Shown here in pieces: positions 5,308-13,154 of a stretch of DNA of 57,892 nucleotides; position 1 is the stretch's first letter; every line of letters begins with the position of its first letter. This stretch comes from an uncultured Candidatus Saccharibacteria bacterium. Lineage in GTDB: Bacteria > Patescibacteriota > Minisyncoccia > UBA6257 > Colwellbacteraceae. The stretch spans positions 1 to 57,892 of the forward strand of contig CAZMCG010000001.1 of assembly GCA_964565105.1 (NCBI GenBank). Reading direction: 5' to 3'. The translations under genes were made by a program, and so were the position numbers. The notes beneath the pieces are model-generated. The model made no database searches. It saw nothing but the letters and a program-made list of their open reading frames with translations, and was not told where the DNA came from.

Positions 5308-5556
5308 CATTCATTCATACTTTCTTCCGAGAGACAGCTATTTCGATAGTAGGAGTTACTAGTCGTATTGTTATACGGAAAATATAAAACTCATTACATT
5401 CAAACACTTATATTTTCCTACAATACTCCTGCAACTCAGGATACTCTCTCCATAAGTCTCTCAAGAAGAAAATATTCATTCTTATTATTACTTAATGCTA
5501 CCTGCCATCTAAAAGATGGCGGGTTTCCAGGGTTTTTAGGGATTTGAACGGGAAGG
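5301..5556 (+). repeat. Direct repeat copy 1 (AT-rich module following tRNA-Gln)
   Basis: Aligns with 7739-8083 starting from the shared junction ccggcaac|attcattcatac. Identity is roughly 85-90% by eye. It ends in the hairpin ctgccatct-aaa-agatggcggg. Confidence 0.85.
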
Positions 5557-5726
5557 AAATCTTTCCTCTGCATGAAGCTGCGGGCGGGCAGGTGGGGAAA
5601 CGGCCCGCTCCGCCATAGCTTTAGCGAGGCGAGTAGTTTTCCATGGCGGAGTGCACGAACCGATGGGTTCGTGGGGGCAATCTACTGTATAACGGATTGC
5701 GACGTTCGATTACCTAGCCTGGTAAC
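5537..5726 (+). repeat. GC-rich structured element E1 (tRNA-Gln-end-bounded family)
   Basis: The 5' end tagggatttgaacg (5537-5550) is near-complementary (12 of 14) to the 3' end cgttcgattaccta (5703-5716). It contains the conserved core atggcggag-tg-cacgaacc-gatg-ggttcgtg (5643-5673) and ends in cctagcctggtaac, which resembles a tRNA-Gln 3' end. Confidence 0.6.
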
Positions 5727-6079
5727 ACAAGTGAAGCGAGTATTGATGACTTGTGCCTTTCAGTAGTCTCCTGACCCCCCGAAGCCCTTGGCGAAGGGCG
5801 TAAGTTATTGGCCTGTGGTTTTCACGGATAAATGTACATTTATATATTAGGTAGTAGATAGGAGAATGCATTGGTGGGGGAATTTTCCTTGGCTCCCGTA
5901 ATAGCTATTATTTTTACTATCATTGGATACGATGGATATATATTTTACTGCAACACCGCGCTTTCGCTGATAGGGTAAGAAAATATTTTTGATACCCTCT
6001 CTTTTTTCCGAGGATGGCAAGGTTGGAGTCGGTGCCGATGATATGATAAAATGATAAAGATGAACCCAAAAATATTTCG

Positions 6080-6427
6080 ATGAGAAGTCTACGCACGAAA
6101 GAAACACAAAAAAAATATGACGATTACAAAAAATCTGGGGGAATTAGCGGTGAATGCAACTTATGCAAATCAGAACCAATAAAATCGTTCGGGCGCTGGA
6201 GAATCATAGATAACGATTTCCCGTACGACAGAATCGCAGACACTCATCACATGATTATCCCAAATCGCCACATTACTGAAGACGATATTACAGATGAAGA
6301 ATGGGAGGAATTTAAGAAGATGAAAAAGGGCTATATAAACGACAACTATAATTTCATTTTCGAGAACACAATAAAAACAAAAACAATCCCAAAACATTTC
6401 CATATTCAATTAATGGTAGTTAAATAA
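6080..6427 (+). CDS. HIT-superfamily protein (HxHxQ branch)
   Basis: 115-aa ORF with an N-terminal CNLC, FPYD...HHMIIPNRH and a C-terminal HFHIQLMV triad-like motif. Confidence 0.7.
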   Translation: MRSLRTKETQKKYDDYKKSGGISGECNLCKSEPIKSFGRWRIIDNDFPYDRIADTHHMIIPNRHITEDDITDEEWEEFKKMKKGYINDNYNFIFENTIKTKTIPKHFHIQLMVVK

Positions 6428-6790
6428 TAAATATTATGACACTCCGAAAAATCGGACATAGCTCTTTCTTTTTGTTTTTAACGAGCTATTTTATTGAACA
6501 AAAAACCCCGACTTTCGTTTAGCCGAGACTTTTCTAATACCTAAAGAGTGTTTGCTTACATTAGAAAGTTAAAATTGCCACGACTAAACAAAGGGTTATC
6601 GTTCGCACCTCGCGAAATGATAAAGCCAATCGACCCTAGCTTTATCCAGTTGTAGCTGTCTCCGAGGAGAAATCAAACAACAATGCAGTATAATTATAAA
6701 TACATAGGCGCTATTCGCATAAAACAAGGGTTGAGATATAAAAATGTTTAGAGCCCGCAAACGAAACGGGCTCTGTGGTTGGGGGAGGTA

Positions 6791-7496: not shown

Positions 7497-7567
7497 TGCC
7501 GGGTGGTGTAACGGTAGCACGCTAGGTTTTGATCCTAGAAATCGGGGTTCGATTCCCTGCCCGGCAA
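7497..7567 (+). tRNA. tRNA-Gln (anticodon UUG)
   Basis: Acceptor tgccggg/cccggca, anticodon stem ctagg/cctag with loop ttTTGat, T-arm cgggg-ttcgatt-ccctg. Confidence 0.9.
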
Positions 7568-7576
7568 CAAAAATGG

Positions 7577-7609
7577 AGTAGTCGTTTTTCTGACGGCTAC
7601 TTTGTTTTT
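7577..7609 (+). terminator. Intrinsic terminator of tRNA-Gln(UUG)
   Basis: Stem agtagtcg (7577-7584) / cggctact (7594-7601) followed by ttgttttt. Confidence 0.7.
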
Positions 7610-7610
7610 G

Positions 7611-7746
7611 TGGCAGGGAATCGAACGCGAAAGGGGTCGGGAAAACAGCTGTTTTCCTGTGGCGGAGCGCACGAACCGAGGGGTTCGTGAAAGTCCCGAA
7701 CTAGTTGAGGGACGAGTGAGATAGCGAAGCGTCCCTGCCCGGCAAC
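7611..7746 (+). repeat. GC-rich structured element E2
   Basis: Starts with ggcagggaatcgaac (7612-7626), the exact reverse complement of the tRNA T-arm/acceptor at 7547-7561. Contains hairpins ggaaaacagctgttttcc and cacgaacc-gagg-ggttcgtg (7670-7689). Ends in tccctgcccggcaac (7732-7746), identical to the tRNA 3' end at 7554-7568. Confidence 0.65.
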
Positions 7747-8083
7747 ATTCATTCATACTTTCTTTCGAGAAACGACTATTTCTATAGTAAAAGCTACTAG
7801 TCGTATTGCTATACGGAAAATATAAAACTCATTACATTCAAACACTTATATTCTCCTACATCAACGAGTGAGAAAAAATGAAGATATAAATATCTTCATT
7901 TTATCCGAACGAGGAAGATGCAAGAAATTGTTTTACAATTTTGCCACAATACTCCTGTACCTTTATTATACTATCTCCATAAGTCTCTCGATAAGAAAAT
8001 ATTCACTCATATTATTACTAAGTGTTACCCGCCATCTAAAAGATGGCGGGTTCCCGGGATTTGTAGGGAATCGAACGGGAAGG
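7739..8083 (+). repeat. Direct repeat copy 2 (AT-rich module)
   Basis: Aligns with 5301-5556 and carries an extra 87-nt insertion at 7861-7947. Confidence 0.85.
7872..7903. terminator. Bidirectional terminator-like hairpin inside the copy-2-specific insertion
   Basis: aaaaa-atgaagata-taaa-tatcttcat-tttt: a perfect 9-bp stem flanked by an A-run and a T-run. Confidence 0.5.
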
Positions 8084-8246
8084 GGTTCCTCCAGAGGCGG
8101 ACAGGCAGGGAAACGGTAGTTTCCCGTGGCGGAGCTCACGAACCGAGGGGTTCGTGAGAGTCCCAAATTAGTTGAGGGACGAGTGAGATAGCTTGTCCTG
8201 TTTATCTCGAGCTACGTCGAGGGACGAAGCGCCCCCGCAGGGCAAC
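8063..8246 (+). repeat. GC-rich structured element E3
   Basis: The 5' part gtagggaatcgaacgggaagg includes a 12-nt complement of the tRNA-Gln(UUG) T-arm. Contains gggaaac-ggta-gtttccc, the core gtggcggag-ct-cacgaacc-gagg-ggttcgtg (8127-8156), an extended gagata...tatctc hairpin, and a degenerate 3' end cgcagggcaac. Confidence 0.6.
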
Positions 8247-8317
8247 AGCCAGTTGAGACCGACTGGAGAGGTTGATTAGAACCTTTTGTTAATGGTTTAG
8301 TGTTATGCTTAGTGTAA

Positions 8318-9412: not shown

Positions 9413-10888
9413 ATGACACAAAAAGGACAAGTAATAATGAGGTTTCAAAATGTTTCATTTGAATACAATGTTAATAAGCCCATTTTGAAAGAAGTAAGTT
9501 TTACCACGCGTTTGGGTTCTAAGATAACGCTTATGGGGCAAAATGGTGCCGGGAAAAGCACTATGTTTCAGCTCATTACAGGTGAGCAAAGTCCTATTGA
9601 GGGGAATATTCATTTAGAAAAAAATCTTTCTATCGCAATTGCCCGTCAAGTTATTCAACGTGATGAACTTGAATTAACTGTACGGGAATTCTTTCAAAAA
9701 GCTTTTAAAGAGAAGGTTTATAACATTGATCCACGAATAGATAAAATTTTAAAGGTGGTAAACCTTCATGCATCTAAAGAAAGAGAGATTAAGGACTTTT
9801 CAGGAGGACAGCAAGCTCGTCTATTATTAGCATTTGCTCTTATTCAAGATCCTGATCTTCTTCTACTTGATGAACCAACAAATAACTTAGACAAAGACGG
9901 CATTGCTCACTTAACTCAATTCCTAATTAATTATGAAAAAACTATTATCGTCATCTCGCACGATGCAGAGTTCTTAAATGCTTTTACGGAAGGAGTTCTA
10001 TATCTAGACATTTTTACTCAAAAAATAGAACGGTATGCCGGTGACTATGAAGATGTTGTTAAAGAAATTGCTGCACGCGTAGAAAAGGAACGCAGAAAAA
10101 ATGCTGCACTTGTAAGACTTATTCAAGAGAAAAAAGATAAAGCTAACTTCTTCGCCAACAAGGGAGGGCGTATGAGGATTTTAGCAAAACGCATGAGAGA
10201 AAGTGCTGCTGAAGCAGAAGAGTCTAAAGTTGATGTATGGCGTGAAGATAAAGCTATTAGAGATTTTGTAATCGAAGTTGATCAACACCATGTGGGGGAG
10301 ATATTGAATATTAAATCTTTAACCATAATGAGAGACCATAAATTAGTTAAATGTGAAGCTAATATATCTTTGAAAAAGAATAGACACTTACTTCTAACTG
10401 GGCCAAATGGGATAGGAAAGACAACTTTGCTTGAGCATTTAGCAAACGGTACTGAGAAAGGAGCACAAATCTCACCAGGGGTAAAAGTAGGATATTATCG
10501 ACAAGATTTCTCTGTACTTGATTTCAATGAAACTGTACATCAGGCATTAAGCTCAGCAGCAACGGGTATATTAGACGAACAAAGACTACGCAGTATTGCC
10601 GCGGGGTTCCTTATTAGTGATAAATTGATGCGCACAAAGGTAGGAGATCTATCTGAAGGAGAAAAAGGTCTTGTCGCATTTGCTCGACTTGTATTGTCTA
10701 AGCCAAACTTATTAATACTAGATGAACCGACAAATCACATAAACTTCCGTCACTTGCCTGTTATTGCAAAAGCTATTGATCAATATAAGGGAGTACTACT
10801 TCTTGTATCCCACGCACCGGAGTTTGTTGATCAAATTCGTATTGATGAAATTTTAGATCTTGAGAAATTAAAACAAATTAAGAATTGA
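9413..10888 (+). CDS. ABC-F family ATPase (two tandem ABC domains, no transmembrane domain)
   Basis: Walker A GQNGAGKST and GPNGIGKTT, signatures FSGGQQ and LSEGEKG, Walker B LLLLDEPTNNLD and LLILDEPTNHIN, plus a charged linker. Confidence 0.9.
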   Translation: MTQKGQVIMRFQNVSFEYNVNKPILKEVSFTTRLGSKITLMGQNGAGKSTMFQLITGEQSPIEGNIHLEKNLSIAIARQVIQRDELELTVREFFQKAFKEKVYNIDPRIDKILKVVNLHASKEREIKDFSGGQQARLLLAFALIQDPDLLLLDEPTNNLDKDGIAHLTQFLINYEKTIIVISHDAEFLNAFTEGVLYLDIFTQKIERYAGDYEDVVKEIAARVEKERRKNAALVRLIQEKKDKANFFANKGGRMRILAKRMRESAAEAEESKVDVWREDKAIRDFVIEVDQHHVGEILNIKSLTIMRDHKLVKCEANISLKKNRHLLLTGPNGIGKTTLLEHLANGTEKGAQISPGVKVGYYRQDFSVLDFNETVHQALSSAATGILDEQRLRSIAAGFLISDKLMRTKVGDLSEGEKGLVAFARLVLSKPNLLILDEPTNHINFRHLPVIAKAIDQYKGVLLLVSHAPEFVDQIRIDEILDLEKLKQIKN

Positions 10889-11052
10889 TGATCACCTTGC
10901 ATTGACAATTCTCCCAAGTCTGTCACAATACACTCATAACTTAATATCTCATTGTTTTTGTTTTGCTTTAACCTTAAACCCTCGAGATGAGGGTCTTTTA
11001 ATACTTATATAGACTCAAAGTTATAAGAGTATTCAAACTCTATAGACAAAAA

Positions 11053-12249
11053 ATGAATAGACAAAACAATCATCGCCGTACTGGTGGGGCTTCTTCTTTT
11101 AGGAAACGACCCCAATCATCTCGAAAATATTCTCACAAAAGGATAGATATTTCGAGATATATTAATACAAATACTCAACCTATTGAGGCTATTAAATATA
11201 CTCATAGGCATAATTTTAAAGACTTCCCTATAGGAGAAAGCCTCAAAGTTAATATTGCATCTAAAGGATATACCACTCCAACTCCTATCCAAGATCAAAT
11301 AATCCCTGAGATTCTAAAGGGATTGGATGTTGTCGGTGTTGCAAATACTGGCACTGGTAAAACAGCAGCATTCCTTATTCCATTGATTCATAAAGCTCAA
11401 GTTAGAAATAAGGAACAAATTTTAATTGTAGTTCCAACTAGAGAATTGGCTCTTCAAATTAATGAAGAATTAAAATCATTTATTAGAAAAACGGGTATGC
11501 GCTCTACATGCACAGTAGGAGGTTCACCAATTGGTCGTCAGATTTCAGACCTTAGGCGCTTTAATAACTTTGTTATCGGGACCCCTGGACGAATTAAAGA
11601 TCTAATTGAGAGAAAAGTATTAAATCTTTCAAAGTTCAACACAGTAGTCTTAGACGAAGCGGATAGAATGCTTGACATGGGATTTATTAACGATATGCGT
11701 TTCATGATGTCTAAAATGCCACACGTTAGGCACACACTTTTCTTTTCAGCCACCGTTTCAGTAGAGATTGAAAAATTAATTAAGGAATTTCTTAAAGATC
11801 CTGTCCGTGTATCAGTGAAGACGGGGGAGACAGCAAAGAATATTCATCAAGATATCGTTAGGATTAAAAAAACTTCTAACAAGATGGATACACTTCATGA
11901 TCTATTAAAGAATAAAGAATTCGATAAGGTTCTTGTTTTTGGCAAAACAAAACACGGTGTCCAAAGGATATCTAACGCCCTTCTTAAAAGAGGACTTTCT
12001 TCAACAGCAATTCATGGAAACAAAAGTCAGCCTCAAAGACAAAGAGCTTTAAGTGATTTTAAAACTAATAGAACTCGCATTTTAGTAGCCACAGATGTAG
12101 CCGCTAGGGGATTAGATATTCCTGATGTAAGTCACGTTATTAATTTTGATATACCAGCTACATACGAAGACTACGTTCACCGTATTGGTCGCACTGGCCG
12201 AATTAATAAGAAAGGTAAAGCACTTACGTTTATTGAACACTCTGTGTAG
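11053..12249 (+). CDS. DEAD-box ATP-dependent RNA helicase
   Basis: Q-motif region TPTPIQ, then ANTGTGKTAAF, PTRELA, DEAD, SAT and HRIGRTGR. Confidence 0.9.
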   Translation: MNRQNNHRRTGGASSFRKRPQSSRKYSHKRIDISRYINTNTQPIEAIKYTHRHNFKDFPIGESLKVNIASKGYTTPTPIQDQIIPEILKGLDVVGVANTGTGKTAAFLIPLIHKAQVRNKEQILIVVPTRELALQINEELKSFIRKTGMRSTCTVGGSPIGRQISDLRRFNNFVIGTPGRIKDLIERKVLNLSKFNTVVLDEADRMLDMGFINDMRFMMSKMPHVRHTLFFSATVSVEIEKLIKEFLKDPVRVSVKTGETAKNIHQDIVRIKKTSNKMDTLHDLLKNKEFDKVLVFGKTKHGVQRISNALLKRGLSSTAIHGNKSQPQRQRALSDFKTNRTRILVATDVAARGLDIPDVSHVINFDIPATYEDYVHRIGRTGRINKKGKALTFIEHSV

Positions 12250-12324
12250 GGGGTTGAGCACGAGTCGTTGATGGGTAGTCAAATCGTACTAGTACGAGGA
12301 GTGTATGGGTATCGTACGCTTGAG

Positions 12325-12349
12325 GTGGGTTCGATTCCCACTATCTCCA
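12325..12349 (+). ncRNA. Orphan tRNA/tmRNA-like T-arm plus 3' acceptor strand (no cognate 5' half found)
   Basis: gtggg-ttcgatt-cccac followed by tatctcc-a. This closely resembles a tmRNA/tRNA 3' end, but no GGAGAUA/GGGGAUA partner lies within tRNA distance upstream. Confidence 0.4.
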
Positions 12350-12482
12350 GGAACTTGCAATCTAGTCAAGGATTCAGTGATTTTTTGATACTGTTCTTTT
12401 GAATAATCTATGCTCTTGAAGGGAGCTTGTTGTGCCGAAAGTATACTTAATACGAACTAGCCTTGAATTGATAGCGTGGATT

Positions 12483-12555
12483 GAGGAAATTGAAGGCGAC
12501 TTCGAATAACTTGATGGAGGACGAGTGAGATAGCGAAGCGTCCCTGCCCGGCAAC
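12483..12555 (+). repeat. GC-rich element E4 (short form)
   Basis: gaggaaattgaaggcgac resembles the E 5' arm. The block 12519-12555 is identical over 37 nt to 7710-7746 and ends in the tRNA-Gln 3'-end 15-mer. Confidence 0.6.
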
Positions 12556-12905
12556 CACGTAAAATAACAAACCCGCCCTCAAAGGTGAGTTTGTTATCAC
12601 GTGGCGCGGCCACGAAAAGTGATTGGTTCACCTCGTGGCGCGGCTGCGGGGACTGGGATTTTTACTCCATGATAAGCCACGGGATAATTTTACGTGGGTC
12701 GGGTGATGAATTGCACAGCAATTCATTTTACGCGACACTTACAATATGTATTATGTCTCGCCCTTCGTTTCTCTCGGGGCTTGCCAAGTGCAAGTACATT
12801 CGACCAGGCTTTCTTCGACTTGGTTTGATGCTACTCACCACAAGTCGCTCAGGATAAACAGTGCAAGCGCTTTGATTAGCTCATAAAATTTAATATGATT
12901 AGTTT

Positions 12906-13154
12906 ATGTATTTTGTTTATATCATCAGGTGTGAAGATAGCAGTCTTTACACTGGATCAAGCCCCAACCCAAAAGAGAGGTTTAAGAAGCATAAAGCTGG
13001 GACTGGCGGCAAGTACACAAGATCTCATAGACCTGTAAACCTTGTTTATATCGAAAAGCTTAATACTAAAAGCGATGCAATCAAAAGAGAGATGCAAATC
13101 AAGAGATGGCGAAAAGACAAAAAAGAAAGACTTGTAAAGGGAGCAAAGCTGTAG
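12906..13154 (+). CDS. GIY-YIG nuclease-domain protein (stand-alone, UPF0213/YhbQ-like)
   Basis: 82-aa ORF with YFVYIIRC..SLYTGSS, the KERFKKHK..G..KYTR region and a YIEKL...A.KRE..IKRW tail. Confidence 0.85.
   Translation: MYFVYIIRCEDSSLYTGSSPNPKERFKKHKAGTGGKYTRSHRPVNLVYIEKLNTKSDAIKREMQIKRWRKDKKERLVKGAKL

Follow-up and report, generated by a model that had tools for sequence, protein, structure and literature searches.

The window considered here is the whole 57,892-nt stretch of contig CAZMCG010000001.1 (assembly GCA_964565105.1) from an uncultured Candidatus Saccharibacteria bacterium, whose genome is of the candidate phyla radiation (CPR) type (578,396 bp in 40 contigs, ~40% GC, 98% complete). 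It carries genes for tRNA-Gln(CUG) and tRNA-Gln(UUG) (the latter at 7497–7568, +) together with a group of short, GC-rich, non-coding, related units that we call E elements: E1 (5536–5728, +), a full element ~230 nt downstream of tRNA-Gln(CUG); E2, behind tRNA-Gln(UUG); E3 (8064–8247, +), an older full element; and E4 (12489–12555, +), a solo right end. A 37-nt block, GGACGAGTGAGATAGCGAAGCGTCCCTGCCCGGCAAC, is found with no mismatches at 7710–7746 (+), where it closes E2, and at 12519–12555 (+), in E4. The 4.8-kb interval between the two tails contains the obg, ABC-F ATPase and DEAD-box helicase genes, and on its far side E4 is followed by a leader sequence, K, and by a small GIY-YIG nuclease gene. 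We consider it probable that E is a family of ~120–190-nt structured insertion elements, devoid of open reading frames (ORFs), in the 3′ tails of CPR tRNA and transfer-messenger RNA (tmRNA) genes, and that the 37-mer is their right-end junction.

The window contains no third match to the 37-mer at up to three mismatches (zero expected from 100 shuffles), and the whole genome holds exactly the two copies, both with the tRNA tail. The perfect identity reported by a sequence-only reading of this DNA is thereby borne out. Both loci are genuine and not assembly joins. An independent Logan contig from a second sample (L070) is 100% identical to positions 10088–12749 and crosses the E4 copy unbroken, and another (L071) spans tRNA-Gln into E2. 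A Logan contig from the first sample (L069) ends 30 nt inside the 37-nt repeat, as expected of an assembler working at k = 31. The organism is present in two samples, SRR17622021 and SRR9822619.

The block consists of a 23-nt terminal module and a 14-nt tail. The tail is identical to the 3′ end of tRNA-Gln(UUG) (ccctgcccggcaac, 7555–7568), confirming the earlier statement that the block ends in the tRNA-Gln 3′ strand. The module is made up of a pseudo-T-loop (TGAGAT) followed by a GCGAAGC mini-hairpin motif, and its 21-mer core is GACGAGTGAGATAGCGAAGCG. In the first copy, the core, the GCGAAGC motif and the tail copy occupy 7711–7731, 7724–7730 and 7733–7746, and in the second copy they occupy 12520–12540, 12533–12539 and 12542–12555, respectively. 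An alignment of 25 elements allowed three types of right end to be read: GAGCGACG-TTCGATTA-tail, GAGCGACG-TGAGATT-tail, and a longer type, GACGAG-TGAGAT-AGCGAAGCG-T-tail, which is seen in E2, E3 and E4. E1 has an end of the TTCGATTA type. As aligned, the longer right end reads as the short form with AGCGAAGCG inserted, and an intermediate form (TTCGAAT-AGCGAAGCG-C) closes the element at locus L017. E3 was described previously as a diverged version of the block, which holds: the same module is present, split after GATAGC by ~33 nt with a gagata/tatctc hairpin, and is followed by a diverged tail (cccccgcagggcaac).

Within the modules, the mini-hairpin motif varies only at its fourth base (GCGCAGC, GCGTAGC), so that the block fits the motif definition GCGNAGC, with variation tolerated at N alone. 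GCGNAGC is an extraordinarily stable DNA mini-hairpin motif (the melting temperature of GCGAAGC is 76.5°C) and is known at the priming sites of single-strand phages (PMC13037366). The motif offers a lead towards a possible single-stranded DNA stage.

The fold proposed for the block by the sequence-only reading, a T-arm-like stem (gggacg/cgtccc) with an enlarged 15-nt loop, did not stand. The hairpin has a predicted energy of −6.6 kcal/mol and a z-score of +0.41, with 134 of 200 shuffles folding as well. In the best fold of E2, GGGAC pairs with an upstream GTCCC (hairpin P4), the tail pairs with an upstream inverted segment (t′, helix P1), and the T-arm hairpin is absent. Other members of the family could pair GACG with CGTC only (at most 4 bp), and the stem is not conserved in the alignment. 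No tRNA or tmRNA model match was obtained at 12519–12555 with ARAGORN or Rfam. On these grounds, an identification of the block as a T-arm, tRNA or tmRNA was rejected.

The insertion at tRNA-Gln(UUG) is polymorphic. The tRNA gene is intact (detected by ARAGORN; 65.8 bits with the Rfam tRNA model). A 16-nt sequence, tccctgcccggcaaca, reaching from tRNA position ~60 to 2 nt past the discriminator, was identified by repeat search and empty-site alignment as a direct repeat at 7554–7569 (+) and 7732–7747. The 178-nt insertion unit (7570–7747, +) is missing in a closely related strain exactly between the direct repeats (blastn, MAFFT). In that strain (L072, sample SRR9822619), the tRNA-Gln(UUG) tail is joined directly to attcattcat..., with exactly 178 nt fewer. 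Its flanks otherwise match, except for a variable patch at 5985–6670 and three single-nucleotide polymorphisms (SNPs) that lie no more than 180 nt from the tRNA. As the SNPs cluster in that patch, the idea that the tRNA-Gln tail borders diverged and identical strain sequence was rejected. The empty-site allele is genuine, because a 31-mer comprising T-loop, tail and spacer can arise only from an empty-site molecule. Furthermore, the sequence from 7747 on is ~90% identical to that directly after tRNA-Gln(CUG) (5309 on). The junction in that paralogous unit is uninterrupted, and E2 plus its hairpin is therefore an insertion relative to it.

The element proper spans 7610–7746. It is preceded, between tRNA and element body, by a terminator-like hairpin (7575–7608, +) at the centre of an 85-nt imperfect palindrome (7544–7629). 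Next comes t′ (7612–7626, +), which is complementary at 15 of 15 positions to the T-loop, the 3′ strand of the T-stem and the start of the acceptor of tRNA-Gln, and which pairs with the tail of the 37-mer. The conserved core (7639–7713, +) was delimited by alignment, covariation and folding (z = −2.5) and consists of hairpin P2 (7639–7658), GTGGCGGAG, hairpin P3 (7670–7689) and hairpin P4 (7693–7713). The unit thus has a tail direct repeat at both boundaries, leaves the tRNA intact, and has an empty-site counterpart in which only the element and one copy of the repeat are lacking, as in integrative elements that target tRNA genes. No credible ORF is present in the 178 nt, so that the integrase of that class is missing from the unit. 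Whether E2 was gained or lost, the tail repeats delimit it, with the 37-mer as the attR-like junction on the right. The earlier suggestion of an att-like site is to this extent largely supported.

The same layout recurs in every full element inspected: an intact tRNA, usually a terminator-like hairpin with A-rich and T-rich arms, t′, core, module and a copy of the tail. Here t′ is an inverted copy of the T-loop, the T-stem 3′ strand and part of the acceptor strand, and the tail is a direct copy from tRNA position ~60 to just beyond the discriminator. The core comprises GGGGTC, P2, GTGGCGGAG, P3 and a variable P4. Automatic extraction yielded more than 30 tRNA-plus-element pairs, covering most amino-acid specificities as well as tmRNA. 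With E3 as BLAST query, relatives were found in 16 of 41 related genomes. In the genome of the window, more copies lie on contig C8 behind tRNA-Pro and tRNA-Arg, and weaker ones elsewhere; the element behind tRNA-Arg(UCU) (G000:C8:5694–5792), like one of the L008 elements, is broken by runs of N and is incompletely readable. P2 and P3 covary. When counted on a hand-specified structure, 87.7% of cells are paired, compared to 78.2% in shuffles (none of 500 shuffles as high) and 26–65% in slid controls, and 10 pairs have double-sided changes. RNAalifold applied to the MAFFT alignment found P2 alone, since members with the long (GCGAAGC) module are misregistered at P3. The full fold of E2, with its tail paired to t′, has an energy of −53.3 kcal/mol (z = −2.5). 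Rfam holds no model for the family: only two tRNAs pass the gathering score, and nothing relevant appears at E ≤ 5.

Two cases indicate how the ends relate to the target. In one genome (L020), elements behind tRNA-Arg(GCG) and tRNA-Gly(GCC) share ~95% identity between GGAATCGAAC and GAGATTCC, with a compensatory change in P3, although their t′ segments and tails differ. The part that they share is thus delimited by inverted T-loop sequence, the one stretch that every tRNA has. At L005 (region of G033:C2:46562–46637), the 5′ end of an RNase H gene harbours an E element oriented opposite to the gene. The inverted arm of this element corresponds to the gene and not to a tRNA, and beyond the element is a ~75-nt, ~70%-identical duplicate of the first 25 codons of that gene.

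The module is conserved well beyond this genome. Scans restricted to exact matches located GACGAGTGAGATAGCGAAGCG in nine loci of a species-representative genome collection, which belong to metagenome-assembled genomes with labels such as Yonathbacteria, Paceibacterota and Saccharibacteria, and in 13 metagenome loci, corresponding to 14 distinct loci altogether. With few exceptions, the module there ends a full element and runs directly into the ~15-nt tail of a tRNA or tmRNA situated 140–250 nt upstream. The tails are those of Gly-UCC, Gly-GCC, Arg-UCU, Pro-CGG, Glu-UUC, Ala and tmRNA. At up to two mismatches, the module is present in 5 of 401 genomes of the window's own order, where it closes elements behind Asn, Pro, Gly and Leu tRNAs. 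Among 24 distinct instances of the module, 20 stand at the end of a full body; the other four are solo or partial. No exact match to the 21-mer occurs among 2.9 million viral contigs (IMG/VR), and an origin as a phage attP was rejected accordingly. With a module fixed by the family and a tail dictated by the target tRNA, two ends at tRNA-Gln(UUG) are expected to be identical without recent copying. The identity of the two 37-mers therefore requires no such event. Of the two causes offered earlier, recent copying or strong constraint, constraint is the better one, as the 21-mer is exact in distant CPR lineages beside many tRNA tails, and recent copying is not needed.

E4 differs from E2 in that recognizable element sequence is restricted to its last ~48–60 nt: a remnant of the P4 loop, the module and the tail, aligned by nhmmer to positions 90–132 only of the family's hidden Markov model (HMM). 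Neither an inverted tail copy nor an element body is found upstream, where the sequence is unique in the genome. The flanks of the two 37-mers had been called unrelated. This is correct for the 100 nt preceding E4, which compare to the E2 body with a score of 34 (33 ± 7 for random genome segments), and not entirely so closer in, where a weak upstream similarity was detected (92% over 48 nt by repeat search; nhmmer envelope 12489–12555). A full-length, decayed element at E4 was rejected, given the random level of similarity in those 100 nt and the restricted HMM match. E4 and its cognate tRNA are on the same strand, with E4 4,974 nt farther downstream. By a rough estimate, such a placement has a ~0.4% chance of arising at random in a 578-kb genome, which argues that E4 is locally linked to the tRNA-Gln locus. 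The arrangement is not unique: three of the four solo or partial ends (L041, contig C14 of the same genome, and E4) have the cognate tRNA, or a fragment with T-arm and tail, upstream, with other sequence in between. At L041 the order is tRNA-Ala, a full element with diverged module and tail, a HicA toxin gene, the module and an exact Ala tail. On C14, a tRNA-Ser-like T-arm and tail are followed by a leader, a GIY-YIG gene, the module (7 nt past the stop codon) and a Ser-like tail. The expectation that copies sit at the boundaries of variable segments therefore holds for E2, for L041 (behind the HicA gene) and for C14 (behind the GIY-YIG gene).

E4 would thus mark, as a remaining attR-like junction, the distal limit of a 4.8-kb segment whose near end is that same tRNA-Gln tail. 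The three genes of this segment are neighbours in several relatives, in shuffled order, and the notion of a foreign island is unsupported for this reason. A local rearrangement, or chromosomal DNA that inserted into an old element, would account for it with the same likelihood as capture.

Several points weigh against E as a family of insertion elements with the 37-mer as their end. The set of exact 21-mers was picked by the search itself, so that its invariance is overstated, and variants with up to two mismatches exist. As its count of 5 in 401 genomes indicates, this type of module is rare in the window's own order. The absence of E2 from the related strain could reflect a slippage deletion between the 16-nt repeats and not an ancestral empty site. 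The housekeeping interval is not ordinary mobile cargo, and E4 may simply be a relic. Lastly, E2 is devoid of an ORF and has no adjacent integrase; the only two PF00589 genes of the genome (C1:30707 and C6:18712) are distant.

The sequence immediately downstream of E4 raises the alternative that E4 is the footprint of a homing cassette. K (12556–12756, +) begins exactly at the end of the tail and is ~200 nt long, with a cacgtaaaat ... attttacgtg inverted repeat. It is 90–94% identical to G000:C5:56–222, where K stands directly after the module and tRNA-Met tail of a different type of element and also precedes a GIY-YIG gene. The C5 module plus tail is found beside tRNA-Met on C20 as well, and a 16-nt stub of K follows a tRNA-Pro element. 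In the window, K is succeeded by the first four codons of a GIY-YIG-like ORF (ATGTATTATGTC...), apparently a lost gene, and then by unrelated sequence. Farther on lies the small GIY-YIG nuclease gene (12906–13154, +; 82 residues; PF01541, E = 1.3e-21), one of 11 small paralogs. The genome has 12 PF01541 matches, which are these 11 small genes (78–98 residues; contigs C1, C3, C5, C6, C8, C14, C23, C24, C25 and C38) and UvrC, the most among 41 relatives. For six of the 11, a tRNA, a tRNA fragment or an E tail is no more than ~400 nt away. Such a gene abuts tRNA-Glu in C23 and L042 and tRNA-Ala in L028. A short repeat, cttcgacttggtt.gatgctactcaccacaag.cg.tcaggataa, was also noted at 12790–12870 of the window, at G000:C23:5508–5575 and at G000:C12:18049–18107; it closely follows tRNA-Glu(CUC) and tRNA-Ala(UGC) and, in the window, precedes the GIY-YIG gene.

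According to this alternative, E4 is a flank that was co-converted or carried along by K and the GIY-YIG gene, and the small nucleases cut tRNA tails and so spread both the cassettes and E. The exact start of K at a tail end in three places (Gln, Met and Pro tails) would be explained, as would the second K with its GIY-YIG gene on C5, behind another module and tail that is itself duplicated by its tRNA on C20. The abundance of PF01541 genes, their proximity to tRNAs and tails, and the C14 module behind a GIY-YIG gene fit as well, and T4 SegB, a GIY-YIG homing endonuclease in a tRNA gene cluster, provides a precedent (PMC2330249). In contrast, the copy number of these genes does not track E in 40 relatives (mean 3.6 with E and 2.9 without), and one E-bearing genome has a UvrC-type match only. 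A GIY-YIG gene is near just 2 of ~68 fetched loci (mostly E loci in other genomes), where it lies upstream of the tRNA, and the proteins encoded after the two K copies are only 34% identical. We therefore regard the footprint explanation as unlikely, and a role of GIY-YIG as an obligatory partner was rejected for lack of correlation across relatives. The cassette is better described as a second passenger of tRNA tails that may act as a helper, and not as an established partner.

A second alternative is that the two 37-mers are identical through a very recent copy, made for instance during the insertion of E2 or by ectopic gene conversion across 4.8 kb. The identity drops sharply, from 37/37 to 7/11 and then to nothing, E2 is a recent gain or loss at the strain level, and the equivalent region and tail of E3 have diverged despite lying between both copies, all as such an event would predict. 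Nevertheless, E4 is 100% identical in the sample in which E2 appears absent. The contig that spans E4 is unbroken there, which implies that the 37-mer is unique in that sample and that E4 is present where E2 is absent; E4 cannot then derive from E2. Conversely, a full element such as E2 cannot come from a fragment of 48–60 nt. With a 21-mer that is exact in distant lineages and a tail set by the tRNA, identity is expected in any case, and recent copying is accordingly improbable.

The block could instead serve as a functional RNA end, a mimic of the tRNA acceptor/T minihelix in which tail and t′ leave a tRNA-like 3′ overhang, so that RNase P, RNase Z or the CCA-adding enzyme would process or stabilize the RNA, or be decoyed by it. 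In full elements, t′ and tail do pair into one uninterrupted helix that corresponds to the stacked T and acceptor stems, in some members (the tmRNA element at L029, and L007) t′ is complementary to the tail throughout, and the covariation of the core is as expected of a folded RNA. This covariation fits folded single-stranded DNA equally well, and in P2 the G-U pairs and A-C mismatches, 8 against 5, leave no clear strand signature. Moreover, the minihelix is out of reach for E4, which has neither t′ nor body, shuffles fold as well as the isolated 37-mer, and tRNA mimicry is inapplicable to the element in the end of the RNase H gene. A role of this kind seems to us quite doubtful. A generic dispersed repeat, or chance similarity without meaning as a boundary, has nothing in its favour beyond the recurrence of short GC-rich words in the region and is refuted by the absence of matches in shuffles, by the two genomic copies, both with a tRNA tail, and by the tail-like sequence that follows every other module instance found elsewhere.

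For E as a family of insertion elements, a mechanism can be outlined. Most likely, with about an even chance within this explanation, insertion would proceed by Campbell-type recombination or gene conversion, crossing over within the T-loop, which is universally conserved. The incoming element would supply a replacement tRNA tail, and the old tail would be displaced behind the module at the right end. Module plus tail would then constitute the minimal right-end site, which implies that the interior could be either a small structured body or cargo genes. A GIY-YIG nuclease cassette would have landed directly against E4. By analogy to the Xer-dependent CTX-type elements, the palindrome formed by tail, hairpin and t′, together with the mini-hairpin motif, suggests a single strand that folds to display the target as a duplex copy. 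The candidate catalysts would be a host tyrosine recombinase acting on this folded strand, or a GIY-YIG nuclease with repair. An IS110-type bridge RNA element was rejected: the genome has no match to the DEDD recombinase domain (PF01548), for which control genomes do give matches. A retroelement seems doubtful as well. The single reverse transcriptase gene (RVT_1, C15:669–1859, 396 residues) sits in a diversity-generating retroelement (C15:1–1859), with an Avd-like ORF and a template-repeat-like stretch that has a lectin/FGE-type variable-region signature. A more far-reaching and tentative possibility is that module plus tail is the minimal cis end of a new class of protein-less mobile cassettes. 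Bounded by inverted T-loops, these might adopt any tRNA, tmRNA or gene end as a new target, which they would copy into t′ and tail, and move through a folded single strand of DNA or RNA with GCGNAGC as a priming or resolution signal; the same right end might mobilize or reorder chromosomal genes over kilobases, those for nucleases and toxins among them.

Among known systems, E resembles the integrative elements (phages, islands and ICEs) that target tRNA genes by tyrosine integrases and cross over in the T-loop or anticodon loop, and their decayed, integrase-less derivatives. It shares with them insertion in the 3′ part of a tRNA gene that is kept intact by an end copy on the side of the element, tail direct repeats at both junctions (attL and attR), tandem arrays behind one tRNA and a precise empty site. 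It differs in the size of its unit (~180 nt), which is without an integrase or any ORF, in its conserved, covarying hairpin core with an adjacent inverted copy of the target, in the presence of the same body at many tRNAs per genome, and in the absence of module matches among the viral contigs. The block thus works, by analogy, like the attR of such an element and E4 like a solo att remnant, with the proviso that the integrase of the class is absent.

The 178-bp repeats of the E. coli tyrT operon, represented by RtT RNA (RF00391), likewise follow a tRNA gene, are non-coding, and repeat the 3′ end of the tRNA at the close of every unit. E yields no match to this or any other relevant Rfam family, serves many tRNA species and tmRNA, and carries the inverted tail copy and the conserved core. 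Integrative mobile elements exploiting Xer (IMEX), such as the CTX phage, integrate through a folded single-strand attP. E is similar in being protein-less for integration, in having a palindrome that could fold into a duplex copy of the target, and in carrying a hyperstable mini-hairpin motif of single-strand initiation sites; its target is the T-loop and tail of a tRNA and not dif. The bridge RNA or seekRNA of IS110/IS1111 resembles E as a structured non-coding part that matches both strands of the target, whereas the E host lacks a DEDD transposase, the matches of E are 14–20-nt terminal segments and not internal loops, and the end of the gene is duplicated. Free-standing GIY-YIG homing endonucleases of the T4 SegB type (PMC2330249) recall the small GIY-YIG genes beside tRNA genes and tails, one of which abuts E4, whereas E encodes nothing and is not correlated with GIY-YIG copy number, and cleavage of the tail is only putative here.

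The literature search for a described tRNA-tail element of CPR bacteria returned nothing relevant and, with no Rfam match either, the E family appears to be uncatalogued. New in this analysis are the decomposition of the 37-mer, the conservation of the module across lineages, the natural empty site of E2, the pattern of solo ends and cargo, the constraint on GCGNAGC and the link to the K/GIY-YIG cassettes. Genomes of CPR bacteria (Patescibacteria) are tiny and thought to be poor in mobile DNA. This 578-kb genome nonetheless holds several copies of an element family that would be rewriting the ends of its tRNA genes. The family is experimentally tractable, with a module and a target-derived tail, a polymorphic copy with a precise empty site, and solo ends that bracket gene cargo. 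The results define a junction to clone, empty and filled alleles to compete, and candidate host factors (the two tyrosine recombinases and the expanded GIY-YIG family). A tRNA tail duplicated after GTGAGATAGCGNAGCG can serve as an annotation signature, and E insertions would explain contig breaks beside tRNA genes in CPR metagenome-assembled genomes.

Further repeats and tRNA-like sequences were noted in the window and elsewhere. An insertion of ~87 nt (7861–7947), specific to the second tRNA-Gln unit, contains the 10-mer ACGAGTGAGA followed by a near-perfect palindrome of A-run, hairpin and T-run, and is possibly another decayed mini-insertion. The 10-mer is shared with the 37-mer, as the sequence-only reading had remarked, and is indeed present this one additional time, at 7864–7873 and not 7863–7872. 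One given 10-mer is expected 0.06 times; as the block contains 28 overlapping 10-mers, chance alone should give ~1.7 matches, and a single extra match is not significant. Right after the stop codon of the DEAD-box helicase is a 103-nt tmRNA-like tRNA domain (12250–12352) with a 5′ GGGGGUU, a 3′ UAUCUCC-A acceptor including a G3-U pair, a perfect T-arm (GUGGGUUCGAUUCCCAC) and a weak match to RF00023 (17 bits, model positions 1–374). ARAGORN detects no tmRNA anywhere in the genome, and an SmpB-like ORF is readable on C14 (~5930–6340, minus strand).

A second family of tail elements, with a different core and an end of the form ...gaccg(a)...gggaat/gtgaccgat plus tail, occurs behind tRNA-Met, tRNA-Ser, tRNA-Gly and tRNA-Arg (G000:C20:11848–12056, C5:1–55, C8:20854 on the minus strand, and L024, L026, L028 and L031). 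In its C20 copy, the direct repeat comprises the tail and at least 37 nt of terminator. Between tRNA-Arg(CCU) and tRNA-Arg(UCU) (G000:C8:5273–5508), three copies of the 5′ end of tRNA-Arg(UCU) (cctccccgt) each run into a GGCG...GCGGGTTCGTCGCTC unit, which suggests a further type of element that duplicates tRNA 5′ ends. At L004 (G010:C65), an intact tRNA-Pro(GGG) is closely preceded by 26 nt from the 5′ end of a tRNA-Pro (cgggctgtagtataccggcaagtacg), and the tail after the downstream element (cagcccgac) matches this fragment and not the intact gene, suggesting that one tRNA-Pro gene was replaced by another.

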